From a virus, in IMG/VR virus record IMGVR_UViG_3300021478_000216, positions 1 to 64,000 of that record: a stretch of DNA of 64,000 nucleotides, one strand, 5' to 3'. Each line of letters begins with the position of its first letter. Positions within the stretch are counted from its first letter, which is position 1. Shown here piece by piece: positions 521 to 45,712 of the stretch. Both the position numbers and the translations under genes were made by a program. The notes beneath the pieces are model-generated. The model was given only the letters and a program-made list of their open reading frames with translations, ran no database searches and was not told the origin of the DNA.

Positions 521-1683
521 GTAGCCGCCACTATGAACGCGTTGAGCGCCTGTGTCTTCGGGACACCGTTGCTGTCGAAGAGACCGAATAGGCCTCCGTC
601 GTACGAGTTGTCCCACCAGGAGAAGATGAACAGCGGTCCTGCCCACGACCACGTGCGTGCCTTCTGGAAGGCTTGCGTGATAGATTCAGCCTCGAACGCA
701 GTGCCGTACTGGTCCGTCGGCGCTCCGAACTCGGTGAGCCAGATCTGCTTGTTGCCGTCGCCATGGGACACCATGATCTGGTGCATTTGGGGCAGGTAAG
801 CCCAAGGGTTCCAGGAGTCGTTCGTCTGGCTGGGCAGGTCTGGGAAGCTGTAGGGATGGGTGTTCATCCCGTCGAAGTATCCCTGCGCACCGTCTGCGTA
901 CATGTCCTGGAGATAAGGGATCGGTTCAGGGTTCCCGGGGCCTAGTCCTCCTACTAGGACTACTGCTGTAGGCTCCATAGACTTGATCGTAGTGTATGAG
1001 GCCTTCAGGATGGCAGTGTACTCCGCTGCTGAGATTCCTCTCAGGTTCGGTTCGTTGATTATCTCGTATACGTGGACGCCTAGTGGCCAGAGTGTCTGGA
1101 CATCCGCTGTGGCGTTGGATGATGTGTCGGATGGGTTGCTACCGTTAACGATGGCTTCGACGCTGATTCCAGCTGCGATGAGTTGCTTGACGACCCCTGC
1201 GTGAGAGTTTCCGCCTGCATCCATGCGCCACCACTTGACGCCGTCGGTCTTCATCATCTGAATGATGCTGGCTTGTTGACTTGACGACATGTTGTCTAGA
1301 GTATCCTGGAAGCCTCCTCCAGGACTAATACTTGCTGGGACTCCTGTGATAGAGCCCGAAGTAGACGGAGGTGTAGTAGTTGTCTGAGTTACCGACGACG
1401 GGACAGTAGTGGTTGGTGTAGTCGTCGTCGGAGTTGTAACGATCGGTGTAGTAACGGTAGGCGTCGGAGTAGGCGTTGGAGTCGCGCAGGGCTCTTCGGT
1501 GTGTCGGATATGTGGCGTACTCGAGTGATGGTGTGTACGGGTAGGCGTTGATGATGCGACTACTAGGTGTGTTGCTGTAGGAGACTGTGAACTAGGGTTA
1601 CTGCCTCCTACCAGCACCAGACTTATGCCTGTTGCTGTCAGAGCTCCTATTGCCGTTCCGAATGTTCGGATCGGTGGTCGCAT
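517..1683 (-). CDS. secreted clan-A glycoside hydrolase (GH39/GH5-like) with Pro/Thr linker
   Basis: N-terminal hydrophobic signal, PT/T-rich linker, acid/base motif INEPN, HPY, nucleophile motif WLTEFG, C-terminal FGL. Confidence 0.8.
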   Translation of the reverse strand: MRPPIRTFGTAIGALTATGISLVLVGGSNPSSQSPTATHLVVASSTPTRTHHHSSTPHIRHTEEPCATPTPTPTPTVTTPIVTTPTTTTPTTTVPSSVTQTTTTPPSTSGSITGVPASISPGGGFQDTLDNMSSSQQASIIQMMKTDGVKWWRMDAGGNSHAGVVKQLIAAGISVEAIVNGSNPSDTSSNATADVQTLWPLGVHVYEIINEPNLRGISAAEYTAILKASYTTIKSMEPTAVVLVGGLGPGNPEPIPYLQDMYADGAQGYFDGMNTHPYSFPDLPSQTNDSWNPWAYLPQMHQIMVSHGDGNKQIWLTEFGAPTDQYGTAFEAESITQAFQKARTWSWAGPLFIFSWWDNSYDGGLFGLFDSNGVPKTQALNAFIVAAT

Positions 1684-1994
1684 TGCGACCTCTCTTTCTC
1701 TTGGGATCCGCTCCCCAAGTCTTTGCGAACATGGTGGCTCGGATTACTTCGGCCGCTGCCGGGAGGCTTTCGACCTTCTTCAATCGGTCCGCCCGCGTCC
1801 TTGTACGTTATTCCTCGGAGGAAGTAGCTGACGGATGGTCGAGATATCCTGTACATCTTCGCTATCCATGCCATAGGTATGTCGTATTCAGCTCTGATGA
1901 TGCGGGCTGCCCTGACTTCAGCGTCCGTCATTGCGGCGTTGTTGTTGTTTTCACCGCGCTGGTAGCTAGAGTTATTATACGGCACCGGAATCAT
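1647..1994 (-). CDS. helix-turn-helix DNA-binding protein
   Basis: GENNNNAAMTDAEVRAAR...IAKMYRISRPSVSY resembles the HTH tail found on phage HNH nucleases. Confidence 0.55.
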   Translation of the reverse strand: MIPVPYNNSSYQRGENNNNAAMTDAEVRAARIIRAEYDIPMAWIAKMYRISRPSVSYFLRGITYKDAGGPIEEGRKPPGSGRSNPSHHVRKDLGSGSQEKERSQCDHRSEHSERQ

Positions 1995-2385
1995 CTAGGT
2001 TTTCGGGTTTCGGGGGATTACGCCGCTTTCCTGTGAGTGATTGTTGCGGGAAGAAGCTATAGGGATCGTGTGGGATTCCATAGCGTGCAGTCGAGCCTGA
2101 TTGATCTGCGGCGTCGGTATCCCAGCATTGCACTGTTCTGAAGCCTATTCCATGACGACGATGCCTTGTGTACATCAAGGTCATGATAGTTATGAATGTT
2201 AGGGCTAGATACATCGTAAGGGTCTGAAGTATTCCTATGGTGAGAAAGAACCAGACCGTAATGATACATGCTAGTATGATGATTGGTATAGCTAGGACTA
2301 CTAGTCCCATACCTAGTAGCATATGCTTACTGGGGGACAAATCGTCCCACGGACTGTTTCTGTGTTGAGGAAGTCTGTGTCTCAT
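1975..2385 (-). CDS. membrane protein
   Basis: Two long hydrophobic segments; overlaps neighbours in operon fashion. Confidence 0.6.
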   Translation of the reverse strand: MRHRLPQHRNSPWDDLSPSKHMLLGMGLVVLAIPIIILACIITVWFFLTIGILQTLTMYLALTFITIMTLMYTRHRRHGIGFRTVQCWDTDAADQSGSTARYGIPHDPYSFFPQQSLTGKRRNPPKPENLDDSGAV

Positions 2386-2582
2386 TGGCGTGGATTCTTC
2401 CAGTCTCTAGAAGTAACGAAAGATGCTCTCGTGGATAGCATTGTAAGTGTTCCGAAGACTCCTACCCAGAACCAGTTCTTGACGGATATGTTTTCTAGAA
2501 GGAGGTATGAAGAGACGAACTGTAGGATTATGTAGCGTCCTAGTCTAAGTATCAGTTCCTGAGTTGTTAGGCGCTGAGACAT
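2382..2582 (-). CDS. small membrane protein
   Basis: Two hydrophobic stretches; 4-bp overlap with the next gene. Confidence 0.55.
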   Translation of the reverse strand: MSQRLTTQELILRLGRYIILQFVSSYLLLENISVKNWFWVGVFGTLTMLSTRASFVTSRDWKNPRQ

Positions 2583-2811
2583 ATGATACCTCCTCTATGG
2601 CTTCTCCTGTAGCTGGGCAGATCCAGATGATTGTGAGTCGAAGATCTACGTATCGGAACCCGAAACCTAGCTGGTGCGGGCCGACGTAGGGATGGACTCC
2701 GCAACAGTGCGAGCATCTGATTCCATGAGACTTAGGTAGCGCTCTTTTGTGCTGACTTCCCTTAGCGTTTAGGTAGTCAGCCCACGGGAGACCTGTCTTA
2801 TTCCGGTACAT
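2545..2811 (-). CDS. putative zinc-ribbon protein
   Basis: CSHCC...WICPATG Cys pattern. Confidence 0.5.
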   Translation of the reverse strand: MYRNKTGLPWADYLNAKGSQHKRALPKSHGIRCSHCCGVHPYVGPHQLGFGFRYVDLRLTIIWICPATGEAIEEVSYVSAPNNSGTDT

Positions 2812-3001
2812 ATCCTGAAGGACTATTAGTAGCTAGCTGTGCCTTAGCGGTCTCTGCAGCTGCGACACCGTTTAGGGCCCCGAGGGTCGATTCTGCCGTG
2901 GTCTTAGCCTTAAGGCGCACTGTCCAGACCTCGTTCGAGTCTTCTAGGTATTCGAGGACTTCGACTCGAAAGGTCCTCTTAATTCCGTCACCGTCAGGCA
3001 T
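2798..3001 (-). CDS. hypothetical protein
   Basis: Tightly packed in the minus-strand operon. Confidence 0.55.
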   Translation of the reverse strand: MPDGDGIKRTFRVEVLEYLEDSNEVWTVRLKAKTTAESTLGALNGVAAAETAKAQLATNSPSGYVPE

Positions 3002-3165
3002 TATCGAGTCTCCAGTCCGTATTCTCTTAGTAGGTCGTCTAGTGCGTCTTCGAGGTCGGCGCGAAGGTCGTCTATGAGACCATAGATCTCGGATGGTTTA
3101 GCACGTTCGACTGAGTCCTCGAAGTCTCTGAGGAGCGTGTCGATCTTCGGGATCCTTACTGACAC
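3001..3165 (-). CDS. small acidic helical protein (54 aa)
   Basis: Hand translation from GTG 3165: MSVRIPKIDTLLRDFEDSVERAKPSEIYGLIDDLRADLEDALDDLLREYGLETR; fills the gap between track ORFs. Confidence 0.6.
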   Translation of the reverse strand: MSVRIPKIDTLLRDFEDSVERAKPSEIYGLIDDLRADLEDALDDLLREYGLETR

Positions 3166-3167
3166 CT

Positions 3168-3494
3168 TCAGGGCCTTTCGGTGTTAGTGTTGCCTAGTTC
3201 AGTACCTTCGAAGTTAAGATCTGCGAGGATAGTCGATTTTATACTCATGTAGCCTATTCGCTTAGTCCCGATAGCAGGCATCTGCCACCGTGTCATGTCT
3301 GTTTCAGCCATTTCAGCGTCTTCGTATACGTATTCGAGAAGGCGTAGTATCCTAACTGGCTTGCTTGGGGCTTCTCGTTCGGCCCCCAGCTCCATACCTG
3401 CATCGAATGCGTTATGGAGGTCATCTTCTGTGAGCTCGTGATAGTGCGGACCGTCTTCGCTGTTTCGCCAGTGTTCAAAGTTCTGGTGCACCAT
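3168..3494 (-). CDS. hypothetical protein
   Basis: Likely start MVHQNF at 3494; acidic globular composition. Confidence 0.55.
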   Translation of the reverse strand: MVHQNFEHWRNSEDGPHYHELTEDDLHNAFDAGMELGAEREAPSKPVRILRLLEYVYEDAEMAETDMTRWQMPAIGTKRIGYMSIKSTILADLNFEGTELGNTNTERP

Positions 3495-3732
3495 CTTCGG
3501 GACCTTTCGGTGGTAGCTTGCCTTTAGTTCGTAGTAGTTCGTCAGCTTCCTCGACGTTAATGACTCTACGGCCGCAGTCGCAGTACTTCCAGTCCAGTAC
3601 ACCCTTTTTCATCCATCCGTAGACTTGAGGTGCATATACGTCTCGGACTTTAGCGTACTGAACGGGTGTCATCCATTCAGAGCCTTCGTTATCGAAGGCC
3701 ATCATTTCCTTGATCAGGTCGTCAGTGTTCAC
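3475..3732 (-). CDS. HTH/excisionase-like DNA-binding protein
   Basis: MTPVQYAKVRDVYAPQVYGWMKKG plus CDCG; shares the [ST]PV...PxQVYG-like pattern with 60655..61260. Confidence 0.6.
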   Translation of the reverse strand: MNTDDLIKEMMAFDNEGSEWMTPVQYAKVRDVYAPQVYGWMKKGVLDWKYCDCGRRVINVEEADELLRTKGKLPPKGPEDGAPEL

Positions 3733-4111
3733 GGAGTTGTCGCAGGAATTCGCGTGTCTCTTCGTCCTGGCGGTACATGTATGCTCGAGTTTCGGCTTCT
3801 GGACTGTATAGTGGCCCTGTAACCTTGAGGTCTGTTATAGTGACAGGCCTAGGCGCTTCTAGCGTAACCGTTGAAGGACTGTCAGGCCACTCGTGGTAGT
3901 ACGCTTCGCTAGCAACCCAAGGGTCGGGCTGGTATACAGTGTCTGGTAGGTAGATAGGGGCTGCATACTTAACGTTGTCCCATTCGTCCTTCCATTCACG
4001 GAGTTCTGCGAGACGCATTTGCTCGTTGAACCATTTCCCGAAAAGGAATCCGAGACCTATTAGGATAGCTGATACTATGAGTACTATGCCTGCTATTTGA
4101 AGGTGGCTCAT
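3722..4111 (-). CDS. single-pass membrane protein
   Basis: N-terminal TM helix. Confidence 0.6.
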   Translation of the reverse strand: MSHLQIAGIVLIVSAILIGLGFLFGKWFNEQMRLAELREWKDEWDNVKYAAPIYLPDTVYQPDPWVASEAYYHEWPDSPSTVTLEAPRPVTITDLKVTGPLYSPEAETRAYMYRQDEETREFLRQLREH

Positions 4112-4120: not shown

Positions 4121-4906
4121 TTATGAGATGGCGTAGAACGCTGTAGGTGACCAGCTTCCGCCGTAGGAGTGGAATCCTACTGACGTACCTGGTTGTTGTG
4201 CTCCGAAGGTCTCGCCCGGCTTAACGTACAGCTCGACATGACCAGAGCCAAAGAAGGCTAGGTCGCCAGGCTGTGGATTACTCGTCGGGACTAGGAGTCC
4301 CGATGATGTGCCCTGTCCTAGCATCGAGTAGGTATCCCTAGGCATGTTAGATATTCCGATCTGCAGTGCGGACCAGTAAACTAGTCCTGAACAGTCGAAA
4401 CCTCCTGGAGATGCTCCGCCGTAGACGTACGGGACGCCCTGCTGAGTCTCAGCTTCTGCTAGAAGCCTGCTAGCTAGTGACCCGTTAGTCGGTGGAGGAG
4501 CGTAAGTATATGTGACGGTCGGAGTAGGAGTCGGAGCTGCTGGCGCCGTATACGTCGGAGATCCTGACGGTCTCGGCGTATACCTCGGCGTGCTGCTTTT
4601 ATGCGTAGCCGCAGTATGCGTGATCGTCGGTTGAGCTGGCTGGGCGAATTCATCTGACAGCAGTTTCCGGATCTCTTGCTGAGAGTAGGACGGTACCTGA
4701 GCTGCTGTTGCTTGCGACTTAGGCTTATGGACGATCATGTCTGCTGCTTGTGCAGGAGATGAGCTGCCGAAGCTGACTATTGCCCAAGTAGCTAGGCTTG
4801 TAAAGGTAGTGACGATGACTAGGGCGCCTGTAAGCAGGCGGCGTTGCCGCCGACGACAGTGAGGACACGGTCGCCGGCGGTTCCGCCTGCTGCTATTAGC
4901 AGCCAT
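4121..4906 (-). CDS. secreted NlpC/P60 peptidoglycan endopeptidase
   Basis: GVPYVYGGASPGGFDCSGLV, PGDLAFF, GHVELY; signal peptide and Pro/Thr linker. Confidence 0.9.
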   Translation of the reverse strand: MAANSSRRNRRRPCPHCRRRQRRLLTGALVIVTTFTSLATWAIVSFGSSSPAQAADMIVHKPKSQATAAQVPSYSQQEIRKLLSDEFAQPAQPTITHTAATHKSSTPRYTPRPSGSPTYTAPAAPTPTPTVTYTYAPPPTNGSLASRLLAEAETQQGVPYVYGGASPGGFDCSGLVYWSALQIGISNMPRDTYSMLGQGTSSGLLVPTSNPQPGDLAFFGSGHVELYVKPGETFGAQQPGTSVGFHSYGGSWSPTAFYAIS

Positions 4907-5453
4907 CGTACGGGGTCCACGGGGAGTAGCCCCAGAGCTTGACCGCTGCCCAGAAGATCGAGGTCTGGTAGGAGGCGGAAGCGTTCCCGAAGAGGGCTCG
5001 GCTGCCTCCAGCGGCGACCCAGGTGGAGAAGCTGAACTGGTAGAGACCGTAGTGACCGGTCGAGTTCATGACCTGGGCGTTGCCGCCAGACTCGCGCGCG
5101 ATAATGCATGCCTGCATGGCGTTGCTAGGCGTTATCGGGTGCGTTAGCGCTGTAGTCAGCACAGCTGCGGTGGTCGCTTTGCTGCACTTGAACGTCAGGC
5201 GCTGACCTGAGAGGATCAGGTTCGGGCTACTTCCGATGACTGCCCGGTCCTGGCTGTAGATAGAAGACCAGCTGCTTGAGTTACCGCACATCTTCTGCGC
5301 GATCCCTGACAGTGTGTCTCCTGGTTGAACTGTGTAGTGGTAAGTTACAGCTGATGCTGCGAGTGCAGCGCCGACGGCTGCCAATCGGAGTGTAGTCCTG
5401 CGTTTTGATCGCCTGTGGACGATGCTGTCGAAGATTCGATCGATGAAACTCAT
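4896..5453 (-). CDS. LysM + Rpf-like lytic transglycosylase
   Basis: YTVQPGDTLSGIA...PNLILSGQRL (LysM); CIIARESGGN...GLYQFSFSTW...PW (Rpf/transglycosylase). Confidence 0.88.
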   Translation of the reverse strand: MSFIDRIFDSIVHRRSKRRTTLRLAAVGAALAASAVTYHYTVQPGDTLSGIAQKMCGNSSSWSSIYSQDRAVIGSSPNLILSGQRLTFKCSKATTAAVLTTALTHPITPSNAMQACIIARESGGNAQVMNSTGHYGLYQFSFSTWVAAGGSRALFGNASASYQTSIFWAAVKLWGYSPWTPYDGC

Positions 5454-5908: not shown

Positions 5909-6106
5909 TCAATTCAGGTGGTGTGTGAGGAACGACACTGTATGTAGTTGCTTATCGGTTCTAATTTCGATTGATAGTCTTAGGCTACTAGCTTGGTAAC
6001 GTAGCCTTCTAGTCAGTCTCGGAAAGTCCCTAGGATTGACGTTTTGAGCTGTTTTCCACGCTCCGTCGGCTGCGGATTCCTTTAGTATGTCACTGTAGTC
6101 GTCCAT
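5909..6106 (-). CDS. small putative DNA-binding protein (divergent member of the 'YxWxxxTDG' family)
   Basis: DYSDILKESAADGAWK...RDFPRLTRRLRYQA; first gene after the promoter at 6135-6164. Confidence 0.55.
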   Translation of the reverse strand: MDDYSDILKESAADGAWKTAQNVNPRDFPRLTRRLRYQASSLRLSIEIRTDKQLHTVSFLTHHLN

Positions 6107-6212: not shown

Positions 6213-7478
6213 TTACCACATCTGGTCCCATGCTTCTCGCTTGTAGTGTACTTCGTCGTGACAGCCGTAATCTCTGCAGTTGTGGTATCCTGAGTCGAAG
6301 CGAAGTACTTTGGGAACTAGCCGTTGCTCGAGTGTAGTCCAGTTGATGTTAGGGATCGTAGCTCGAACAGTTACTGGATCTTCTCTAGCTCTGTCCCAGT
6401 CTATGTTGAATCCGCAGTCTCGGACCTTGCTGTCTGTCCTGAATATGTTAGTTTGGATAATGAGTAGATAACTGTGAACCGTATGCTTCCACTGACCCAG
6501 TTCGGCTCCTTGATCCAGCTCACCCGAGATATCCACGTTGGTGAAGAATCCGTCGGTATTCCATCGATACACTGTACCATTGTGGGATACGGCCTGTCGC
6601 ATGGCGTCGACGAGTATCGATCTAGTTGTTCCCCGTATGTAACTTCCCAGATCTGGACGGAACGTCGGTAGCTTGGGAGATAGAAACTTTCCAGGCAAGA
6701 CACTCTGTGTCACCTTCAGGATACGTGATGTTGGTTTGTCTTCTAGAGCCTTACGAGCGTCATCTAGAGTTTGTGCGAAGTCCCCCAGTTGAGGAAACTC
6801 TAGCATCACGGAAGCGTAGGCGCTGACTAGGTCGTACTCGTGTATTGGGCCCGGGATATAGCCGCAGGCTACTGATCCGATTTCCGGTGAGGGGTCTAGA
6901 CCGTGCGAGACGATAGGTATTGTGCTCAGATCTATCTTCATGTCATGAAACAGAAAGTCTGCTATAGACGAGTTTCGGAACCATCTGTTCTGGTATGCAC
7001 GGAGTCCGACTTCGGCAAGCTCCGATCGGGCCTGATTCATGATGGCTGTAGCGTCGTCTGTTCCATAGAGTGCTGCAGTTCTTTCTAGTGACTGAAGAAA
7101 GAATGGTCGTACATCGTATATGCGGTTGGTCTTTCTGGAATCGCCTACCTGATACCAGAGTTCGCCGCCTGTGACCTGCGTACCCTCTTTGTACGTACGC
7201 ATGCATACTTTTCCCCAAGGTGTGGGTACTGGTATGCCTTCACTGAATATGATCTGCAGATTTCTGTCTGAGAATGACGCTGCCAAGTTCTTAGCTACTT
7301 GCCGGAGTTTGCCGTAGCAGACCTGCGTAGTCTCAGTGTCTGTAAAGTACGTGTTGAGTGGTGCGAACTCTAGTTGTCTCTTGGCAACTTCGCGTGCACG
7401 AGCTCGCTTCTTGGTTTCTAGGGTGTTAGTACTGCGGAACTCGATTCCGCTACTGTTCCAGTCAGCTACCTTGTCCAT
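6213..7478 (-). CDS. compact, divergent family-B DNA polymerase (protein-primed PolB-like motifs)
   Basis: ExoI-like FTDTET; motif A YDLVSAYA; motif B KVTQSVLPGKF; motif C WNTDGF; LGQWK; only 421 aa. Confidence 0.75.
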   Translation of the reverse strand: MDKVADWNSSGIEFRSTNTLETKKRARAREVAKRQLEFAPLNTYFTDTETTQVCYGKLRQVAKNLAASFSDRNLQIIFSEGIPVPTPWGKVCMRTYKEGTQVTGGELWYQVGDSRKTNRIYDVRPFFLQSLERTAALYGTDDATAIMNQARSELAEVGLRAYQNRWFRNSSIADFLFHDMKIDLSTIPIVSHGLDPSPEIGSVACGYIPGPIHEYDLVSAYASVMLEFPQLGDFAQTLDDARKALEDKPTSRILKVTQSVLPGKFLSPKLPTFRPDLGSYIRGTTRSILVDAMRQAVSHNGTVYRWNTDGFFTNVDISGELDQGAELGQWKHTVHSYLLIIQTNIFRTDSKVRDCGFNIDWDRAREDPVTVRATIPNINWTTLEQRLVPKVLRFDSGYHNCRDYGCHDEVHYKREAWDQMW

Positions 7479-7915
7479 TACGTGTCGCCGTAATCAACCT
7501 CATTCTGGGTCATTGTTCTACCTATTTTCTGGAACCATAGGTTTCTCCACCTTTGTCGCTGGTTAGAGAAACGTTCGTAGAATGCGTTCCATAGAATTTC
7601 TCGGTTCTGGTCTGAATCATCCAACAGACTTGGATCTTCTCGTGTGAGGCGCATCCATTCGAGCTCGAAGTACGGGTCGTTGAACATGACGTCGCCGTCT
7701 ACTTCGCGAACTCTTTCACGGACGATAGTTCGGAATCGAATCTTCTCGGCTTCACCTAGCGGGCTACTCGGTAGACCTAGGTTGAAGTACCGACGCATTT
7801 CTTCTTCTGACCGGTGTATAACTCTGCCACGTTCGTTTACGCGGCCTCCTCGGAGACCCCTGAACTTGTCCTTGAGTATTTCCCAGTCCGAGTCACTAAC
7901 AGGCAACCAACTCAC
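7478..7915 (-). CDS. hypothetical charged helical protein coupled to the PolB (terminal/primer-protein candidate)
   Basis: 145 aa, Arg/Glu/Trp rich; its stop overlaps the PolB start; ends ...EVDYGDT. Confidence 0.6.
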   Translation of the reverse strand: MSWLPVSDSDWEILKDKFRGLRGGRVNERGRVIHRSEEEMRRYFNLGLPSSPLGEAEKIRFRTIVRERVREVDGDVMFNDPYFELEWMRLTREDPSLLDDSDQNREILWNAFYERFSNQRQRWRNLWFQKIGRTMTQNEVDYGDT

Positions 7916-8124
7916 TACTCCACCTTGGAGAACTGGAACCAGACGACATTACCCCTGATATGTACTCTTACTGGCTGACTTCGTATTCGCGCGTGGTATC
8001 GTAGTAGTGTTCGAAAGTTCTTAGGCGTTGTGTAGAAGTCTTTACCACGGGTAGCTTTCCAGATAGTACCGTCAGTTAGTTCGTTCCAGTCGTACTTGGG
8101 AGGTCGTCCGATTCTCGGAGGCAT
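7915..8124 (-). CDS. small putative DNA-binding protein ('YxWxxxTDG' family)
   Basis: MPPRIGRPPKYDWNELTDGTIWKATRGKDF...VWFQFSK; clear paralog of 9423..9680. Confidence 0.7.
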   Translation of the reverse strand: MPPRIGRPPKYDWNELTDGTIWKATRGKDFYTTPKNFRTLLRYHARIRSQPVRVHIRGNVVWFQFSKVE

Positions 8125-8125
8125 A

Positions 8126-8338
8126 TCATGGCATGAGGCTAAATGGGTCGCTAGACATTGATCTAGCGCAGACGCCATAGAAGACGGTATGAAAACCGAG
8201 AAGGTTGTAGCCATGGTAGTAAATCGGGTGTGAATGAACCCATCCGTTAGGGTCGTCCGTCCAGCCTGCGTCGAGGATCGGTGGTCCACAGATTGGGCAC
8301 CTTCCGACGATATGTCTGATATAAACAGGTGTCTTCAT
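8126..8338 (-). CDS. small Cys/His protein
   Basis: CPIC, HSH, C; fills the gap between the helicase and the next gene. Confidence 0.45.
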   Translation of the reverse strand: MKTPVYIRHIVGRCPICGPPILDAGWTDDPNGWVHSHPIYYHGYNLLGFHTVFYGVCARSMSSDPFSLMP

Positions 8339-9270
8339 ACAGGGATCACCGGAGCCAGAGAGAGCTTGTGTGTACGCGTGTCGAAGTAGACAGGAAACTC
8401 ATCCATGTCGGCTTCTAGTCTTCCGGTAGCACTGAAGTATCGGATTCCCTTTTCGTTTGGTGACCCATCATCTTCCTCTAGGCGCTGGCCTCCGATTCGG
8501 TAAGACCACAGAGCGTCTGCCGCGTCTCCAAACACACTGCCACCACGAGCACGTCGCTGAGCAGTGTGCCCTGTATGGTGTACAAGGAGAACGTCAATGT
8601 CTCCAGCTTCGTGAGAGAGCTGGTTGAATGCTTCGACGAGAGCTCCGCCACCAGAGGAATCATTCGCATTCTCCACCAGATTGAAGACTCGGAGTAGCGG
8701 GCCTAGAGGGTCTACTACTAGGATCTTGACGTTTCGGTTTCTTAGCATTTCTGCGATAAGAGCCCTGGTACCGTCGTTAATGATGTTGAACTTCTTAGCC
8801 TGTCCGCGCAGGTTCAAGACTAGTGCGTTGCTTGGAAGGTCAAACGGGCGTGCATAGTGCTGCTGCGTCCGTTCGTCAACTTCGAGATTTACGTCTAGTA
8901 TGTGTTCGTCTGGAGCTAGTGCGACAACCGGTTGGCCTAGGAAGTCTTCGCCACGACTAAGGCTACGTACGAGATTCAGTTTTAGCGTGCTCTTGCCTGA
9001 CTTATAGCGTGCCGCTAGCAGAACAGTACCACCGTAAGGCCAAAGCTTGTTAATACGGTAGCGAGGTGTTCCGAAGTTGATTGCTATGAAGTCAGGGTAT
9101 ACTTGTGGCTCAGGAAGAGAGAACTCAGCCTCAGCGAGCATCTCTAGGAGCTTATGCCTGCCTTGTTGATCGCCGAGTTGCTGCTCTAGGTACAATTTGG
9201 CTCGCTGTGATATAGCTTTGGCACTAGGCGGCGGTACTGGAAGGTCATCGAGGTCCAATACCTCAGTCAT
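8335..9270 (-). CDS. RepA/AAA_25-type (RecA-like) helicase, no primase domain
   Basis: Walker A AARYKSGKST, Walker B LVVDP, LLVHH, RARGGS. Confidence 0.8.
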   Translation of the reverse strand: MTEVLDLDDLPVPPPSAKAISQRAKLYLEQQLGDQQGRHKLLEMLAEAEFSLPEPQVYPDFIAINFGTPRYRINKLWPYGGTVLLAARYKSGKSTLKLNLVRSLSRGEDFLGQPVVALAPDEHILDVNLEVDERTQQHYARPFDLPSNALVLNLRGQAKKFNIINDGTRALIAEMLRNRNVKILVVDPLGPLLRVFNLVENANDSSGGGALVEAFNQLSHEAGDIDVLLVHHTGHTAQRRARGGSVFGDAADALWSYRIGGQRLEEDDGSPNEKGIRYFSATGRLEADMDEFPVYFDTRTHKLSLAPVIPV

Positions 9271-9433
9271 TCTTTCTCGCTTGCGCGCTAGCAGCTGCTG
9301 ATAGTACTTGGCCTACTAGATACAGTGCTTCTATGCGTGTGAAGCCTGAGTTTACGTAAGACATAAACAGCTCGTGAGTGCTCGCAGCTGACTCCATAAG
9401 AGGAGTTATCGGGTCCTTGGGGTCATTCGGCAT
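9263..9433 (-). CDS. small phage protein (56 aa)
   Basis: Hand translation MPNDPKDPITPLMESAASTHELFMSYVNSGFTRIEALYLVGQVL...; HELF..Y..GFT..EAL pattern common in phages. Confidence 0.65.
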   Translation of the reverse strand: MPNDPKDPITPLMESAASTHELFMSYVNSGFTRIEALYLVGQVLSAAASAQARKND

Positions 9434-9680
9434 TTGGGGTCTCCTCCTTTGCGTCCTTCTTGGAAAACTGGAACTCGATGATTCCCTCTTCAGGGCTTCC
9501 CGTAGCTACACTCATTCCCTCTTGGCGTGCTCGAAGATGTAGTGCTGTCTGGAAGCTTGCAGGGCTACAGGTAAAGTCTTCATCTTGCTTGGCTCTCCAG
9601 ACTGCACCGTCTGTCCATTTGTCCCAAGGGTAGTAACGACGCCTTCTCGGTGCAGAGACGTCTTCGACACGCTCAGCCAT
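9423..9680 (-). CDS. small putative DNA-binding protein ('YxWxxxTDG' family)
   Basis: RRRYYPWDKWTDGAVWRAKQDEDF...IEFQFSK; first gene after the leftward promoter. Confidence 0.72.
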   Translation of the reverse strand: MAERVEDVSAPRRRRYYPWDKWTDGAVWRAKQDEDFTCSPASFQTALHLRARQEGMSVATGSPEEGIIEFQFSKKDAKEETPNAE

Positions 9681-10874: not shown

Positions 10875-11338
10875 TGTCAGGGTTTTCCACACCCGGAGTT
10901 CTTTCATCAGCGACGCTGTTGTGTCCTAACGGCGCTGCGGTTGCTCTGATGAACCAGGGACCCAACCCAGTATCTGTAGGCGGAGCTGGTGTAACCGTCG
11001 GTACGTTCGTGTATCAGCTACCTGCAGCTATGCAGGAGCCAATGTACCTGAACGAACCTCCCTTCAATGTACCCGATGCTAACATCTACGGGATCACGAC
11101 GTATCCTGCGGTACCTGGTTCGACTGTTAATGCGACTAACACAGGATCGGGTCCTGTATCGGTGACGATCGCCGGCGGAACTCTGACCTCTGTTAAGGTG
11201 AACGGTGTCCAGGTAGGCACAACTGTAGGGACCTACGTAGTCCCAGCTGGTCAGACCATCTCGATCACGTATACAGTTGCGCCTACGTGGGTATGGCCGG
11301 CTCCGGTTCTAGCTTATACGGCGGCGCAAGGGTCCTAG
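10874..11338 (+). CDS. putative virion beta-rich protein
   Basis: MNQGPNPVSVGGAGVTVG; Thr/Val/Gly rich. Confidence 0.6.
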   Translation: MSGFSTPGVLSSATLLCPNGAAVALMNQGPNPVSVGGAGVTVGTFVYQLPAAMQEPMYLNEPPFNVPDANIYGITTYPAVPGSTVNATNTGSGPVSVTIAGGTLTSVKVNGVQVGTTVGTYVVPAGQTISITYTVAPTWVWPAPVLAYTAAQGS

Positions 11339-13053
11339 TGGAACGAACTGGATACTTCTTCGATAACGATCCGGGATTTGCCTCAGACGGCGAACCGGTA
11401 GATCTTTGGTATCCGGAGTTTCTGCTTAAGCTAATCGATCGTCCTCAGGGTCCGCGGTGGTTTCAGGACTATCTTCGGACCTTGGACAGAGACGTTCTTT
11501 CAGGCAACGACTGTCACGTGCGTGCTCAGCTGTCCAAGAACGACCCGCTACTGTTTGCTCTAACCTACTTGTCTCACCACCTGTACTCGATTGAGACAGG
11601 TGACAAGCTTTCCTTTGCTGAGTTTCATCTCGATCTGCTGGAACATGCTAAGTCCTGGCTACAGAAGTCACGTGTGCCCCGGGAACATCGAGATGCGTAC
11701 GTAGCTCCTCGTGGTGTCGGAAAGAGTACTTGGCTATTCCAGATTCTGCCCGTTTGGGCTGCTGCGCACGGCCATGTTAAGTTTATTGTTGCGTTCTCCG
11801 ACTCAGCTGATCAGGCTAAGAACCATCTTGCTACGATTCGTGGCGAGTTCGACATGAACGACCTTCTTATTCAGGATTTCCCAGACCTGTGTGAGCCTAA
11901 GGTACGTCGTCAGGGTGGCCCTGTCGGTAAGAAGCTGGTCGCGAGTCGGGTTGACATGATCGAGCAGCGCAATGGCTTCGTCATGGTGGCTAAGGGTTCT
12001 GGAACAGCTGCGCGCGGTCTGAAGGTTGGTAAGCAGCGTCCCGACCTGATCGTGCTCGACGATATCGAGCCTGGTGAGGAAAAGTATAGCCCGACGCTAA
12101 TGCGCCAGCGTCTTAGGTGGATGCTTGAAACTGTTTTTCACCTGAACGAGTTCGCGCGCGTCATCATCGTAGGGACTGTAACAGCTCCAGGATCGATCAT
12201 GCACCAGATGGTTGAATCGGAGTTGCATCCTGAAACGGTCGAAGACGCTTGGATCGATGATCAGAACATTCAGGTTCATTACTACGAGCCTATCCTCCTG
12301 AATGACGACGGTACTGAGCGTTCTTGCTGGCCTGGCAAGTGGTCGTTGGAGTACCTCAAGAAGCATGAGCACACACGCGAGTACAAGAAGGAGTTCAAGA
12401 ACCAGCCTGTCTCGATGAATGGGACGTACTGGTCTGAAGAGGACTATGTCTATGTAGACTTGCCCTGTGTTCGTACTGTGCTAGCGATAGACCCCGCAGT
12501 CACTTCGCATGAGAACTCTCACGATACTGCTATCGCGATCGTAGGTCTCTGGCACCCTAAGGCAGGATTGTCGCTTGACGATGTGATTGTTCCGTCTAGT
12601 CTTCAAGGTAACATGCTGCAGCCGAAGGTTGTAGTTAGGTTCGCGACTATCGTGAAACTGCCTCCGAAGCAGCTGCGTGACACTGTTATGTGGTATCTCG
12701 AGCAGTGGCCTGAGATCGGCGAGGTTGTCGTAGAGTCGAACCAAGGTGGAGACACCTGGACTATGGTGTTTCACCACATGCCTGTCAAGATGAAGCTTTC
12801 CTGGAGCGGTCTTAAGAAGTCTGTCCGTCAGGTGCGACTTCTGAATCTATACCAGCGTGGCCGAATAACTCACTCGATGCGACTGTCTAGGCTGGAGCAG
12901 TCGCAGTGTTCTTACGACGGCAGCGAAGACAAGGATATCCTGGATGCTGTTGAGATAGGCGTTAGACACTTCATAACTGCTCCTAAGGTCCTTAGAGGCG
13001 GAACTTACAGCTACGGCCGTAGGACACCTGTGGGGGTGAGCAGCGATGACTGA
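11338..13053 (+). CDS. terL: terminase large subunit
   Basis: Walker A APRGVGKST, Walker B LIVLDD, RNase H-like AIDPA and DILDA; GTG start overlapping the upstream stop. Confidence 0.92.
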   Translation: MERTGYFFDNDPGFASDGEPVDLWYPEFLLKLIDRPQGPRWFQDYLRTLDRDVLSGNDCHVRAQLSKNDPLLFALTYLSHHLYSIETGDKLSFAEFHLDLLEHAKSWLQKSRVPREHRDAYVAPRGVGKSTWLFQILPVWAAAHGHVKFIVAFSDSADQAKNHLATIRGEFDMNDLLIQDFPDLCEPKVRRQGGPVGKKLVASRVDMIEQRNGFVMVAKGSGTAARGLKVGKQRPDLIVLDDIEPGEEKYSPTLMRQRLRWMLETVFHLNEFARVIIVGTVTAPGSIMHQMVESELHPETVEDAWIDDQNIQVHYYEPILLNDDGTERSCWPGKWSLEYLKKHEHTREYKKEFKNQPVSMNGTYWSEEDYVYVDLPCVRTVLAIDPAVTSHENSHDTAIAIVGLWHPKAGLSLDDVIVPSSLQGNMLQPKVVVRFATIVKLPPKQLRDTVMWYLEQWPEIGEVVVESNQGGDTWTMVFHHMPVKMKLSWSGLKKSVRQVRLLNLYQRGRITHSMRLSRLEQSQCSYDGSEDKDILDAVEIGVRHFITAPKVLRGGTYSYGRRTPVGVSSDD

Positions 13054-14572
13054 CATCATGCATGGCCAGATGATGCCAGGCAATACGTTCCTCGGCATGG
13101 CGATTCCTCGTCCGGCCCCTGAGCCTTACAACGACCCCGGCGCTGATCTGCGTAACGGGATTTTGAGTCTTGATGAAGCCCAGCCCGACTTCGTGAAGGC
13201 TATTCAGTACTACAATGGATCTATGCCGGAGTTCTTTGCTTCGCTGCGTCTGCGCATTGCGATGGGTGCAACGGGTGTGGTGTTCAACTTCAACTTCGCT
13301 AAGCTGCCTGTAGATGCTGTTGCTGAACGTCTCGAAGTAGCGTCGATCTTTTCGGACGACAAGGCTGCTGTTGATATTATTCGGCAGGCTTGGAAGGACA
13401 ACCAGCTAGACCTTCACGCACCAGATGTGATGAAGAAGGCTTGTAAGCTCGGTGACGCTTATATGTTCGTCTGGCCGAATGTTGATGGTCAGACGGATTC
13501 TGAAGGCAACCAGCTGTCGGTGGACATCTTTTACCAGTCGCCACGCGTCATGCGGGTGTTCTACGACGACGAGAACGAAAACCGTAAGCGTTATGCGATC
13601 AAGCGGTGGCAGGACCCTAACAGTGGGTTTACGTTTGCTAACCTGTACTACCCGGATCGTGTTGAGAAGTATATGCTTGCTCCTACACCTCAGTCAGGCC
13701 AGAAGCCAAAGTGGGAGAAGCGCCTAGACGAGGGCGACAATGGCCAGTGGCCTGTTGATAACCCATTCGGTGAAGTTCCTGTTTTCCACTTCCGTAATGA
13801 ATACCCCTACGGAGTGCCAGAGCATGTCAACGCTTATGGTCCGCAGGATGCTATCCACAAGCTGGTAGTCAGCCATATGGCCTCGGTCGACTACAACGCG
13901 TTTCCGCAGCGATACGCTATCATGGACCCTGCGTACGACACGTCCGAAGCGGCTATGGGAGACGAAGGCGAGTTCGCGTTCTCGATCGACTCAGGTGCTA
14001 CGCTAGATCAGGGTATGGATCCGAAGTCGCAGTTGACAGCCGACCCCGCCTCGGTCTGGTTCATGAAGGGGATCACGTCCTACGGACAGTTCCCTGTAGG
14101 CGACCCAACAGCATTTCTCAACCCGTTCATGCAGTATGTGCATGCGATGGCAGTTATTTCACAGACTCCGATGCATTTCCTCGATCCAATCGTGTCAAAT
14201 GTGTCGGGAGAGTCCCTTAGGGTGCTAGAAGCGCCTTTCGCGAAGAAGGTGCGCAATCGTCAGATGTCGTTTGGTGCGACCTGGCGAGATATTTTCAGGT
14301 TCGTGTTGAAGATTCGCGGCCAGACGGTTCCTGCGGATGTAACTATCCACTGGGTCCCGGCAGCTACAGTTAACGACCTGAATACCTTGCAGGGACAGGC
14401 AATAAAGGAACAGCTCGGGGTGCCTCCTAGGCAACTCTTGGAGGAGCAGGGAGACACAGCTAAGCAGCTCGACACGTGGGGAGTCACGATCGAGTTTAGG
14501 ACGGGTAATACCGGTCAAGGCTTCTCCACAGAAGCTGATACTGGTGAGCCGGGAACTAGCGAGGAAGTGTGA
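13046..14572 (+). CDS. portal protein (SPP1 gp6-like)
   Basis: Follows TerL; YYNG, NFAKLPVDAVAERL, NPFGEVPVFHFRN, SGESLR. Confidence 0.9.
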   Translation: MTDIMHGQMMPGNTFLGMAIPRPAPEPYNDPGADLRNGILSLDEAQPDFVKAIQYYNGSMPEFFASLRLRIAMGATGVVFNFNFAKLPVDAVAERLEVASIFSDDKAAVDIIRQAWKDNQLDLHAPDVMKKACKLGDAYMFVWPNVDGQTDSEGNQLSVDIFYQSPRVMRVFYDDENENRKRYAIKRWQDPNSGFTFANLYYPDRVEKYMLAPTPQSGQKPKWEKRLDEGDNGQWPVDNPFGEVPVFHFRNEYPYGVPEHVNAYGPQDAIHKLVVSHMASVDYNAFPQRYAIMDPAYDTSEAAMGDEGEFAFSIDSGATLDQGMDPKSQLTADPASVWFMKGITSYGQFPVGDPTAFLNPFMQYVHAMAVISQTPMHFLDPIVSNVSGESLRVLEAPFAKKVRNRQMSFGATWRDIFRFVLKIRGQTVPADVTIHWVPAATVNDLNTLQGQAIKEQLGVPPRQLLEEQGDTAKQLDTWGVTIEFRTGNTGQGFSTEADTGEPGTSEEV

Positions 14573-41081: not shown

Positions 41082-41434
41082 TCATGTCACACCTAGCAGG
41101 ACGATGAGAACTATAGTGAACATACAAGTGAGAGCTATACCGGTAATGAAGCCTCGTGTCCAGTACTTCTCTTGTTCAGGAGTCATGGGCTTCATGTTAC
41201 CAGAAGTCCATGAAGTGCGATATCCAGTTAAGGAACCATATAACGGCTACTATTCCTAGGATGATCACGACGATAAGAATTACTAGAAGCCAGATCGGAA
41301 TAGATACCATACTACCGGTCCTTATACCAGTCTCGGAGCCACTTGAACAAGTGGCTATACTTGATAAGTACGCACATGAGTAGAAACGAGTTAAGATATA
41401 GGATGGCTAGTATTACGGTCGGTATAGTGCTCAT
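41082..41434 (-). CDS. three tandem single-TM micropeptides (41312..41434, 41197..41310, 41082..41195)
   Basis: MSTIPTVILAILYLNSFLLMCVLIK...; MVSIPIWLLVILIVVIILGIVAVIWF...; MKPMTPEQEKYWTRGFITGIALTCMFTIVLIVLLGVT; 1-nt gaps or overlaps. Confidence 0.6.
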
Positions 41435-43986
41435 GCTGTATACTCCTGAAACATAGGAGGCTTCCAAAGTTCGACTGCGCACGGATAGGGACGATCTCCT
41501 CTGAGCCAGTCTTCGAGATGGTTCATATCGCCCCAGTTGCGACCCACTTCTACGTCGACTGTGAATGGTACGTAGTCGCCACAGATCCTGTATGCGGACT
41601 CAGCCATGCGCTGGCGCATTAGGTTGCCTACATATTCGACGTTGTCCTGATGTGTCTCAAAGTACAGAGCGTCGTGGATAGTATTACGACACCAAGCGGT
41701 CCCCTTAAGTTCCTTTCTCAGATTAATGAAGGCCTGAACGCAAATGTCAGATCCTGTAGACTGTGGAAGGAAAGCCATAGCTTCATTCTGGACGTCCTTG
41801 AGATTCTCGTCCGTAACGAGATTAAATCGACGGCGTCGACCGAATGGAGTAATCAGGTCTTCCCCGTGCGTGGCAGCCCACTTGATCTTCTCCCGAAAGG
41901 CTACAATTCGGGGAATGACCACGAAGAAGTCACGATACATAGCTTGCGCGTCACGAAGCGGAATGTCAAGCTCGTCCGAGATGGACTTAGCTTCACGACC
42001 ATAAGCTAGGCCGTACACGAAGGCTTTAACGATGATACGCTTGTCCTTGGCTGAAGCTGACGCCAGTCTGTATGATCGTTCAGGTCTAACGATAGGGAGT
42101 AGCTCGTCGAATAGGTCTCGGGAAGGATCACGGAAGATCTCTGCGAAGTAAGGCTCTTGTGCTAGCCAGGTTAGAACTCGTAGTTCAAGCTGTCCATAGT
42201 CGGCACCAACGAGTACATGGTCATCCTTGGCAACCCTATACTGGCGTCGTAGCTTGTCTCCTCGGGGAATGACCTGTAGACTAGGCTTCTTCTGACTGAG
42301 GCGTCCTGTACTTGTACTGTGTAGCATGACGGTAGGATATACCCGACCGCGCCAGACATACTTACGAAGACCTGATACATAGGTTCCATCTAGTTTGGCT
42401 ACCTTGCGGTACTTAAGCATCGTCTCCAGAAACGTGACTATATCGTCTCTCTTATCACGGCGCGTCTTAGCGGCTTCGTACATCAGAGACAAAGCTTCGG
42501 CATTCGTGGTTTCTACTAGCTCGCCCTTGGTGTTCTTCATCTTAGGTATCGTAACACCTAGTTCATGAAGAACTGCCTTGACCTGCATAGGGGAACGCGG
42601 ATTGAACTCTTCTGCTATCCTGAACATAGTGCGTTCATAGCTAGCAGCCTCGATTGCGTATTCTCTCTGAAGCTGCCGATTGTAATTCAGGTCTACAGCG
42701 AACCCGTTAAGTTCTAGATAGACGAAACCGGTCGCAGCTGCGCAGAGGAAGTCATGTAGGTCTCGGAGTCCCCACCATTCACCATCAGCTCGTGGCCTGA
42801 TCGGGTCAAGACGGAGCGCGTCTTCTCTGTCGATATCGGCATCGAAGAACTCATCCAGTTCCCAAGTGCAAACCACGTCGTAACCGTTGTACTCGTAGAG
42901 GATAGGTCGGGGGATATTGCCGAAGCGCTTGTTCCTTCCTTTGCCGGTGTATTGATCGAGATCTTCGTCATAACGAGGAGCACCTAGTTTCTCGACGGCG
43001 TTGTACTTCAGTCCGTGGATACCCGAGCGTTCATCCAGCACGTAGGATTTGAGCATGGTGTCTTGTCGGATGACAAGGTCCGTGAATCCCTTAGGATACA
43101 GGCCACTAACGTCGAATTTCCCGTTCTGAAATATGAGTTCAATACTGCGCAGCCAATCGGCCATCGATTTGAGGACTGCTTCGGATCTACAGGCCCGTTC
43201 TCCAAATACAATGCCTATGCCTTTCTGTACGCATATACCTATACAGAGCAATGCGAACCTGCTGGGATGGTCGAACGACCTTTCCTTGTCTAGATCCGTC
43301 TCAATGTCAACTACTGCCTTATTGTACTTCCGGCGCAAAACAGCTATCGCACGGAGCGCTCCCTTTTCAGTATCAATGATAACGACCTTAGGCTTTCTCC
43401 AGGGAGGAGCACTGACTACGAGCTTCTGGAAGTCGTTACACATTGAAGGAAAGGAAGCCGACGATCGCAAGCACGCTGCTGGGTGAAATGTAGGAATGAT
43501 CTTTACGTCAGGCAGATCACTAGTCTCGCGGAACGGTCCTACACGCAGCTGAGTAATGCCGATCTTAGTTCTCAGGAGCGACTGAGCCGCAGTGTTTCCT
43601 AGAGCCATGATCTGTTCGACACCGTGTTGCTTGAGTTCGGTTAGCAGTCTTTGTCGACAAGCAGTTACTGCTCCTGGAGGAGGCGTAAAGCTCGGGTTGT
43701 CTTTGGACGTACAGAGACAAGCGTTGGTAATGAACATCTCGTCTCGTCGCAGACGGTAGGCTTGCAGAACCTTGTCTAGGAGTTTGCCACTTGGTCCAAT
43801 GAATGGTCTGCCTAGCCTGATCTCTGCTCGTCCAGGATTCTGACCGACCAAAGCGATCCTAGCTCTGTCGGGGCCAGAGCTAGGAACGAATCCGTATTCA
43901 GAGGTGTTAAGCGGACAAGTCTCGCAGGCTGCTAGAGGGTGACGACGCGCTTTGGGCTGAACTAGTTCGCTGGATTGTTCCACCAC
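41431..43986 (-). CDS. family-A DNA polymerase with N-terminal family-4 uracil-DNA-glycosylase-like domain
   Basis: CETCPL, VGQNPG...PFIGPSG, TFHPAA (UDG4); DIET exonuclease; TGRLS, ADYGQLELR, KAFVYGLAYG, TIHDA. Confidence 0.92.
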   Translation of the reverse strand: MVEQSSELVQPKARRHPLAACETCPLNTSEYGFVPSSGPDRARIALVGQNPGRAEIRLGRPFIGPSGKLLDKVLQAYRLRRDEMFITNACLCTSKDNPSFTPPPGAVTACRQRLLTELKQHGVEQIMALGNTAAQSLLRTKIGITQLRVGPFRETSDLPDVKIIPTFHPAACLRSSASFPSMCNDFQKLVVSAPPWRKPKVVIIDTEKGALRAIAVLRRKYNKAVVDIETDLDKERSFDHPSRFALLCIGICVQKGIGIVFGERACRSEAVLKSMADWLRSIELIFQNGKFDVSGLYPKGFTDLVIRQDTMLKSYVLDERSGIHGLKYNAVEKLGAPRYDEDLDQYTGKGRNKRFGNIPRPILYEYNGYDVVCTWELDEFFDADIDREDALRLDPIRPRADGEWWGLRDLHDFLCAAATGFVYLELNGFAVDLNYNRQLQREYAIEAASYERTMFRIAEEFNPRSPMQVKAVLHELGVTIPKMKNTKGELVETTNAEALSLMYEAAKTRRDKRDDIVTFLETMLKYRKVAKLDGTYVSGLRKYVWRGRVYPTVMLHSTSTGRLSQKKPSLQVIPRGDKLRRQYRVAKDDHVLVGADYGQLELRVLTWLAQEPYFAEIFRDPSRDLFDELLPIVRPERSYRLASASAKDKRIIVKAFVYGLAYGREAKSISDELDIPLRDAQAMYRDFFVVIPRIVAFREKIKWAATHGEDLITPFGRRRRFNLVTDENLKDVQNEAMAFLPQSTGSDICVQAFINLRKELKGTAWCRNTIHDALYFETHQDNVEYVGNLMRQRMAESAYRICGDYVPFTVDVEVGRNWGDMNHLEDWLRGDRPYPCAVELWKPPMFQEYTA

Positions 43987-45509: not shown

Positions 45510-45712
45510 AATACGGTTTTAACCTCTTCCCAGTCTTCCTTGTATGGAGCGCTATCTTCGTCCACGTCTGCCATCCAGCCAAGAGAGTTACGGATTGTGA
45601 AGCTCTCACCTGGGAGAAAGTCATGAACGAGAACCTTGCCTGAAGGCCAGTTTCGTCGACGCATCATGAAGCCTGCTTTGGCCTTTGCGAAGGCTTCTGG
45701 AGTGTTCATCAT
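45506..45712 (-). CDS. DUF2829/Tad2-like small protein
   Basis: EAFAKAKAGFMMRRRNW...W...EDWE matches my recollection of the DUF2829 pattern. Confidence 0.5.
   Translation of the reverse strand: MMNTPEAFAKAKAGFMMRRRNWPSGKVLVHDFLPGESFTIRNSLGWMADVDEDSAPYKEDWEEVKTVL

Follow-up and report, generated by a model that had tools for sequence, protein, structure and literature searches.

Family-B DNA polymerases (PolBs) of the protein-primed type are defined by two subdomains, TPR1 and TPR2, and are regarded as self-sufficient in replicating linear elements of small size (<50 kb). The exonuclease of these enzymes provides fidelity, TPR1 binds the terminal protein, and TPR2 gives processivity and strand displacement (PMC4889955; PMC5695915). 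Priming de novo has been shown for a single PolB, piPolB, whose published signatures are SxTTDG and KTRG, the latter in its extended form KH-X8-KTRG (PMC5695915). For the actinobacterial tectiviruses, whose genomes have perfect inverted terminal repeats (ITRs), protein priming is assumed (PMC11768872). The subject of this study is a 421-amino-acid (aa) protein, here called mini-PolB, which is encoded at 6213-7478 on the minus strand of a 64,000-nucleotide stretch of viral DNA (the window). The window comprises positions 1 to 64,000 of the 78,994-bp IMG/VR contig IMGVR_UViG_3300021478_000216 (G000), which is classed as linear and is ~85% complete. mini-PolB is best called a new reduced member of the tectivirus/piPolB-like branch of family B, placed in a new three-component module together with a helicase and a small protein, p145. 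The lineage persists here in tailed phages of ~80 kb in a form that is half-size, proofreading-dead and TPR-less, tied to the helicase and p145, and present beside a complete family-A polymerase (PolA). These phages are a group of uncultured soil phages, and every genome is metagenomic and incomplete.

The closest described proteins, both in sequence and in predicted structure, are the PolBs of actinobacterial tectiviruses (Toil gp07, WheeHeim, Forthebois, and MuffinTheCat gp7) and their metagenomic relatives of 600-720 aa. They share with mini-PolB a single-Asp motif C (xTDG/A), the glycine at the KTRG position, the invariant aspartate of IYDV, and a C-terminal H-C-C-H motif, which in the tectiviral enzymes and their metagenomic relatives is an H-x3-C-x2-C...H knuckle. 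The tectiviruses also resemble this phage in having a small gene that overlaps the polymerase start. Their polymerases differ from mini-PolB in being 600-680 aa long, with intact ExoI-III motifs, a canonical motif B (KLxxNSxYGK), some 80-90 aa of TPR1-like insert, and a longer insertion following motif B. Unlike in the present phage, the tectiviral PolB is the sole polymerase of a 15-18-kb genome with ITRs and no helicase. In place of the KxY of other PolBs, a literal KTRG is present in Toil gp07 (L023:2015-3805), in a metagenomic relative (L008:3239-5209), and in the proteins P0024, P0026, and P0028. The occurrence of both KTRG and xTDG in actinobacterial tectivirus polymerases bears on the relation of protein priming to primer-independent synthesis.

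More distant systems share single traits with mini-PolB. The DNA polymerase of phi29 (PDB 2pyj, 2ex3) has the same exonuclease fold, palm, fingers, and thumb, but it carries an active exonuclease, TPR1 and TPR2, and the identity is 13%. piPolB, compared by its published motifs, resembles mini-PolB in a motif C where one aspartate is followed by glycine (SxTTDG versus xx[TVI]DG; PMC5695915). Its KTRG motif is present in the parent branch of the mini family, whereas the mini family itself has only [K/R]xxG at this position (RDCG here), and the arginine is not kept. piPolB further retains TPR1, TPR2, and an active exonuclease, and it resides in integrated pipolins, while mini-PolB is found in an ~80-kb tailed phage. 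Loss of the exonuclease, association with a helicase, and a single-Asp motif C are also seen in mavirus pPolB and in pPolB-S1H ('Tlr1-like helicase') of polinton-like viruses (PMC11161782). These, however, keep TPR1, TPR2, and an N-terminal TP-vOTU and are the only polymerase of small eukaryotic elements, whereas mini-PolB has retained a dead exonuclease fold, has lost the TPRs, and is accompanied by a separate AAA_25 helicase and by PolA. Reduced, proofreading-dead, and probably active second polymerases beside a regular replicase are known as divPolA1 and divPolA2 (PMC11348598), but they belong to family A and have other partners in other phage groups. No description of the mini-PolB family was found in surveys of PolBs (PMC7544198; PMC4889955), in PMC11348598 and PMC11161782, or by full-text literature searches.

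Fold, motifs, and ancestry of mini-PolB

mini-PolB matches no Pfam or NCBIfam model, DNA_pol_B and DNA_pol_B_2 included, and none of the proteins of the module has an NCBIfam match. Its sole match to a family model is PHROG 11768, 'DNA polymerase' (1e-7, residues 273-360), and a direct phmmer search against the PDB gave chance matches only. An AlphaFold2 model built from 15 family members (pLDDT 83.8, pTM 0.79) gave 115 PDB matches with Foldseek at E<=1e-3, and the top ranks were all family-B polymerases. The best solved match is phi29 DNA polymerase (VIA-align: Z 15.4, root-mean-square deviation 4.1, 332 residues aligned, model 34-393 versus chain 5-575), with an alignment that runs from the exonuclease fold to the thumb. 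Of the predicted viral structures, those of the Toil and WheeHeim polymerases, from actinobacterial tectiviruses, match best. Judged by its predicted structure, the 421-aa protein is a real family-B polymerase which has been heavily reduced.

The original prediction, made from this DNA without database searches, had recognised a 421-aa PolB with catalytic aspartates in motifs A and C, and the open reading frame (ORF), the alignments, and the structural model all agree with it. The motif assignments were checked by alignment to relatives and to solved PolBs. Motif A reads YDLVSAYA, with D216 kept. In motif B, KVTQSVLPGKF, K255 and G263 are kept while the asparagine, serine, and tyrosine are gone, and in motif C, NTDG, only the second aspartate (D309) remains. 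When the family profile is aligned with PDB sequences, TDG falls on the T-D(second)-S of DTDS, and the conserved aspartate is thus the metal-ligand one. A single-Asp motif C is compatible with activity, as piPolB, the mavirus enzyme, and others are active (PMC5695915; PMC7544198; PMC11161782). D216, K255, G263, and D309 are invariant in 15-17 mini sequences that share just 20-45% identity. Further invariant residues are D122, G206, G310, G328/W330, and G356, and the C-terminus carries a zinc-knuckle-like H-C-C-H motif (H399, C401, C406, and H411). The catalytic carboxylates, which are lost in inactive PolBs of the UL8 type, are present here in all members as D216 and D309.

Alignment to the long relatives bears out the earlier statement that motif B is rewritten, that the exonuclease is eroded, and that there is no room for the TPR insertions. 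What remains of the exonuclease is its fold; the ExoI DxE and the ExoII YD are replaced and the ExoIII segment is deleted, while the long relatives carry the exonuclease motifs DGEG, YD, and YxxxE/D. D216 and K255 are separated by 39 residues, a distance to which the long relatives add 80-90 aa at the TPR1 position. Between K255 and D309 there are 54 residues, and the insert that the long relatives have at the TPR2 position is cut by ~10-30 aa. From its alignments mini-PolB falls outside the pPolBs, as it is without TPR1, TPR2, and an active exonuclease. It likewise falls outside the piPolBs with respect to KTRG, the TPRs, the exonuclease, and the pipolin context. The motif C of the piPolBs is shared, since xx[T/V/I]DG is found in all mini-PolBs and in all the long relatives.

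The family is small. A HMMER search of 1.84 billion representative proteins returned only 30 relatives, about 20 of which are 385-490 aa long; the remaining ones are 600-720 aa and match the Pfam family DNA_pol_B_2 (PF03175). No match to mini-PolB was found by tblastn among 50,697 phage records. No IMG/VR contig was found for the mini-PolB subclades P0010/16/20/25 and P0013/14, and a scan of genome contigs for the family gave just one long PolB of 688 aa, in a contig of a Saccharimonadales metagenome-assembled genome. In a tree that includes the long forms, the mini family makes up one side of a branch with an SH-aLRT of 100. It consists of at least five deep subclades with branch lengths of ~1 change per site, and the catalytic residues do not vary. 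The long relatives are nearest to the polymerases of Streptomyces, Rhodococcus, and Microbacterium tectiviruses, with 28-32% identity over >85% of the length. They are already without the first aspartate of motif C (E/A-TDG/A), and many of them end in the H-C-C-H knuckle. These comparisons place mini-PolB as a descendant of the tectivirus-type (protein-primed or piPolB-like) branch of family B.

The original prediction had named decay of the PolB gene as an outcome that would speak against it, and this check comes out in its favour. The ratio of non-synonymous to synonymous substitution (dN/dS) against orthologs in related contigs is 0.019 (dS 0.44), 0.046, and 0.083, compared with 0.06-0.12 for the terminase large subunit. 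The low values indicate that the gene is not a pseudogene and that it is under strong purifying selection.

The helicase, p145, and polymerase module

mini-PolB is encoded in a tight run of genes on the minus strand that extends from 9680 to 5909. The first gene of this leftward block (9423-9680) encodes p85, an 85-aa paralog of p69 that is found in every locus including those of the distant clade. It is followed by a gene for a 56-aa protein (9263-9433), which overlaps the helicase start and is conserved in the close clade, and by the gene for a RepA/DnaB-like AAA_25 helicase of 311 aa (8335-9270). Then come the genes for p69, a small basic protein (7915-8124), for p145, a 145-aa protein (7478-7915), and for mini-PolB, and last the gene for a 65-aa protein (p65; 5909-6106), which is located downstream of PolB in all mini-PolB lineages. 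An ORF of 124 aa listed at 7915-8289 is over-called, as orthologs limit p69 to ~69 aa. The stop codon of p145 and the start codon of PolB share the sequence TAATG, so that the proposed translational coupling of PolB to a 145-aa protein ending in DYGDT holds. The p69 stop and the p145 start similarly share TAGTG. A gap of 210 nt separates the helicase gene from the downstream genes of the block, and co-transcription of the helicase with p145 and PolB is plausible. Scans for promoters, terminators, and repeats around the module gave nothing exceeding chance.

The gene order p85, helicase, p69, p145, mini-PolB, p65 is the same in six IMG/VR and five metagenome contigs whose PolBs are 43-98% identical. 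In a second clade, represented by the contigs L011 and L016, the PolBs are only 32-35% identical, and both small paralogs and a 140-aa homolog of p145 still precede and abut the polymerase gene. The AAA_25 ATPase (244-251 aa; Pfam 1.5e-26 in L011) has here been relocated to just downstream of PolB. A third arrangement is found in L022, a viral contig of 10.7 kb, where an AAA_25 helicase of 344 aa, a p145 homolog of 125 aa, and a PolB of 638 aa are encoded with consecutive overlaps at 658-3985. The helicase is 29% identical to that of the window (E 2e-22; PF13481 at 3.7e-16), and the p145 homolog is recognised by profile with E 7e-18. The polymerase (P0015) is the closest full-length relative of mini-PolB and has ExoI-III, a TPR1-like insert, and the H-C-C-H knuckle. 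Homologs of the terminase, portal, and capsid genes of the phage described here are found downstream of the L022 module; L022 is a tailed phage which carries a tectivirus-type polymerase and a helicase.

Altogether p145 abuts PolB in 12 of 12 loci, and the AAA_25 helicase is always in the module. The linkage of the three genes is found in three lineages, one of them (L022) with a full-length PolB, and the association of PolB with p145 that had been predicted persists across lineages down to 32% identity. As L022 has the same module with a full-length PolB, the three-gene unit predates the reduction, and the mini form arose within it. This full-length intermediate makes the path of reduction traceable and provides a matched pair of long and short enzymes.

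The helicase matches AAA_25 (PF13481) at 6.7e-21 and has the Walker A sequence KSGKS of a RecA-type P-loop core. The ~65 residues before the ATPase core match no Prim-Pol or Toprim primase family, in agreement with the original description of a RepA-like helicase without a primase domain. Its PHROG matches carry the names 'DNA primase' and 'polymerase/primase'. The closest cultured homologs are found in Mycobacterium prophages such as McProf, where the early operon includes an annotated primase/polymerase, and known relatives of the domain are mostly fused to or paired with primases.

p145 has 39 homolog clusters of 138-153 aa, apart from three of 103-106 aa, and none of them has a trustworthy name. 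The conserved blocks GLRGGRxxERG, TIVRERVR, DPYFELEW, and LWxAYY are followed by an acidic and aromatic C-terminal tail, which ends in DYGDT here, in WEDT or YEET in others, and in HDWDS in L022. The terminal threonine is not universal, since the clade of L011, L016, and P0070 has a longer tail, TDTDLEEAAE. Ser51, located in a loop, is conserved. The AlphaFold2 model of p145 is all-helical (pLDDT 86.7). In fold searches with this model, Foldseek matches had E values of 4 or worse and VIA reached a Z of 3.1 at best among 48,161 chains; the ESM Atlas gave no match for p145. Nothing was found by hidden Markov model search or hhalign between p145 and the candidate tectiviral terminal proteins (Toil gp08, MuffinTheCat gp8, and a 145-aa ORF of L008). 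No fused form of p145 was found among longer proteins, which is weak evidence. The name 'Ku' attached to one p145 homolog in a JGI record is treated here as spurious, and the p145 of the window has no Pfam Ku match.

The second small protein, p69, has a pI of 11, an AT-hook-like N-terminus (RIGRPPKY), and a WxxDG...FQF core. With p85 it shares the common core Y-x-W...DG..W.A...DF....F...L..RA....V......F(Q/R)F. Both paralogs are encoded by every mini-PolB phage, and the family comprises 57 clusters with no named member.

Possible roles of the module

The phage has a complete PolA, as the original prediction noted, encoded at 41431-43986 on the minus strand and presumed to be the main replicase. 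It has a UDG-superfamily domain at the N-terminus (PF03167, 1e-26), followed by the 3'-5' exonuclease and polymerase domains, and PolA is also encoded by four of four large related contigs (77.7-86.8 kb, 83-95% complete). A polymerase of this kind cannot start chains. The earlier observation that there is no primase in the window can be extended to the whole 79-kb contig, where six models (Prim-Pol, Toprim_2, Toprim_3, Toprim_4, DnaG zinc ribbon, and AEP small subunit) gave no credible match, and to the four related contigs, in which no Prim-Pol, Toprim_2, or Toprim_4 was found. One weak Toprim_4 match at 13439-13573 (minus strand) was rejected; it is below the cut-off and lies antisense within an ORF at 13046-14572 (plus strand), just downstream of the terminase gene.

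We tentatively favour the reading that mini-PolB is a low-processivity initiating or priming polymerase, which would work with the helicase on behalf of PolA. Its ancestor would have been a full-length PolB of ~640 aa with proofreading and a TPR1-like insert, already located inside a helicase/p145/PolB module. In the lineage of ~80-kb phages with PolA it would then have shed proofreading, TPR1, and most of TPR2, while the two metal-binding aspartates, the motif-B lysine, and the C-terminal zinc-knuckle-like motif were kept. Because the parts for fidelity, terminal-protein binding, processivity, and strand displacement have been lost, a helicase-dependent enzyme with short products is predicted, and most likely mini-PolB no longer copies the genome. 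The helicase would open the DNA, mini-PolB together with p145 would make short stretches of DNA at the helicase and so fill the place of the missing primase, and PolA would extend them. p145 would be an accessory or coupling subunit of mini-PolB, and the two small basic paralogs, p69 and p85, may be DNA-binding helpers. In pPolB derivatives the loss of the exonuclease accompanies the gain of a helicase (PMC11161782). We infer the activity of mini-PolB, the initiation of chains (de novo or otherwise), and the hand-over to PolA from these features, and the primase substitute of the original prediction is in this sense the best fit among the readings. If mini-PolB does start chains, either de novo or on a protein, it would add a third way in which a primase has evolved, besides DnaG/Toprim and AEP. 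It would then also be a natural minimal PolB core of ~420 aa, which is of interest for enzyme engineering.

Several observations weigh against such a role. The motif-B asparagine and tyrosine that hold the incoming dNTP are lost and the arginine of KTRG is not kept, which makes the catalytic competence and the substrate of the enzyme uncertain. The xTDG and KTRG motifs are also found in tectiviruses with ITRs, for which protein priming is assumed (PMC11768872), and the two motifs therefore cannot separate de novo from protein priming. A divergent primase could be encoded by one of the many ORFs without a family match, or the host primase could be used instead. All five genomes are 83-95% complete by estimate. 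The module is moreover located ~35 kb from the replication cluster of PolA and adjoins lysis genes.

An alternative that we consider rather unlikely is a two-stage protein priming, where p145 serves as the terminal protein and receives its first nucleotide or nucleotides from mini-PolB at the ends of the genome, before PolA takes over. The gene for p145 is found at the position of a terminal-protein gene, directly upstream of and overlapping the polymerase gene as for Toil gp08 and MuffinTheCat gp8, and the ancestry of the polymerase is of the tectivirus type. p145 is co-inherited even with the full-length PolB of L022, which keeps the TPR1-like insert. Its tail ends in a hydroxyl residue after an aspartate in two of the three lineages (DYGDT and HDWDS), and the loop serine Ser51 is conserved. 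There is also a precedent in Actinobacteria, as the Tap/Tpg system of Streptomyces makes a 13-nt protein-linked primer that is extended by another polymerase (PMC5449611). Tap/Tpg resembles the proposed module in combining a dedicated initiating polymerase with a small protein; the likeness is one of arrangement, and Tap acts on the telomeres of chromosomes and plasmids with palindromic overhangs. The description of Tap as PolB-like in the original prediction finds no backing in PMC5449611, where Tap is presented as a special DNA primase that acts on Tpg and family B does not come up. The earlier suggestion of protein-linked DNA keeps the argument from gene position, but much else speaks against it. 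mini-PolB no longer has TPR1, to which the terminal protein binds, the terminal threonine of p145 is not conserved in the clade of L011, L016, and P0070, and p145 resembles no terminal protein in sequence or fold. The terminase large subunit (11287-13053, plus strand; 43% identical to a Streptomyces phage TerL), whose presence had been predicted, has in its C-terminal half the nuclease-type motifs AIDPA, VESNQGGD, and DILDAVE, as read from the sequence, which implies the cutting of concatemers. No ITRs or other terminal repeats were found at the ends of the five incomplete contigs by comparison of DNA and protein, and no protein-primed genome of 50 kb or more is known (PMC4889955). Less probable still is the full version of this scheme, in which an ~80-kb tailed phage would use serial polymerases, p145 being a new kind of terminal protein on which a TPR-less mini-PolB builds a protein-linked primer before PolA follows. 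Were two-polymerase protein priming true, the module would be a viral counterpart of the end patching by Tap/Tpg and the first protein-primed system above 50 kb.

It is about equally doubtful that the helicase, p145, and mini-PolB perform a specialised primer extension beside PolA, for instance in recombination-dependent synthesis, gap filling, lesion bypass, or on the lagging strand, with primers supplied by the host or by recombination. Retention of catalytic residues with loss of proofreading is known from Pol alpha and Pol zeta (PMC7544198), and divPolA1 and divPolA2 are examples of a second, reduced phage polymerase (PMC11348598). Recombination proteins of the phage (an AAA_24 ATPase, a PD-(D/E)XK nuclease, and an SSB-like protein) could supply 3' ends, and an SNF2 helicase is encoded as well. 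A helper of this kind leaves unexplained the loss of the dNTP-selecting residues in motif B, the strict coupling to p145, and the lack of a primase in five genomes, and PolA, which has a proofreading exonuclease, would itself serve for gap filling. That the PolB fold is only a structural subunit of a helicase complex seems very unlikely, even though inactive helicase partners derived from PolB exist (PMC7544198), UL8-type proteins are among the weaker fold matches of mini-PolB, and many substrate-contact residues are lost. The models for this would be the C-terminal half of Pol epsilon and herpesvirus UL8, which like the proposed mini-PolB is derived from PolB and acts with a helicase at the priming step, in the UL5-UL52-UL8 helicase-primase. 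UL8 has, however, lost the catalytic residues and is accompanied by a separate AEP primase, UL52, whereas in the mini-PolB phages no primase is seen and the two metal-ligand aspartates and the motif-B lysine are invariant over a very deep divergence, which is not expected for a dead enzyme. Hardly any probability is given to the synthesis of template-independent or protein-linked DNA as an anti-defence decoy or signal, an idea of the original prediction for which no support was found. The Abi reverse transcriptases, with template-independent protein-primed synthesis, are a general precedent (PMC11077055), and the relaxed nucleotide-binding motif of mini-PolB would be in line with such an activity. 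The module belongs, on the other hand, to the conserved syntenic core of an old phage lineage, where every member has it together with a helicase, and it is no variable accessory island. Its origin lies in a replicase module, and nothing related to defence was found adjoining it.

Genome ends and neighbouring genes

The contig G000 overlaps its close relative G001 in the opposite orientation, and the two do not close into a circle. G001 extends 1.8 kb beyond the left end of G000 and ends within a copy of a small gene, one that G000 has near its right end; the orientation is opposite to that predicted from a circular map. The small gene is located at 78170-78496 (minus strand) in G000, and the inverted partial copy at 77644-77742 (minus strand) in G001 is 83% identical in nucleotide sequence, including a 3' hairpin. 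The inverted copy sits at the PolB-proximal end of G001, and a metagenome contig, L021 (17917-18104), also ends there. The small gene belongs to a family of three paralogs in G000; other relatives are without such an inverted copy, and an exact-pattern scan for a shared end element found it in G001 only. One soil sequencing run shares 41% of the words of the left end, which is not counted as evidence. The inverted copy may mark the border of an inverted terminal repeat, or it may be just another paralog. For protein priming, the failure of G000 and G001 to form a simple circle and the inversion of one small gene at the opposite end are only a hint. At its right end G000 passes into low-complexity sequence rich in T (78750-78994), which is probably an assembly artefact and not the terminus of the genome.

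Beyond the window, G000 encodes a 442-aa P-loop protein at 65450-66778 on the minus strand (L009:2450-3778). It has the Walker A sequence APTKEAGKT, the Walker B sequence FDETD, and a C-terminal DUF3631, with no primase domain, and is the third ATPase/helicase-like protein of this genome besides the AAA_25 and SNF2 proteins. Genes for 7-deazaguanine precursors are found on the minus strand at 45709-46958, 50377-51084, and 55467-56255 and encode GTP cyclohydrolase I, a QueD-like PTPS, QueC, and a radical-SAM protein; this gene set implies that the DNA is modified. Genes of lysis type are located within 1-2 kb downstream of the module on the same strand (4121-5453, minus strand). They encode a LysM protein with an Rpf-like transglycosylase and, judged by motif, a protein of the NlpC/P60 type. 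Together with the affinities of the terminase, these lysis genes point to an actinobacterial host.

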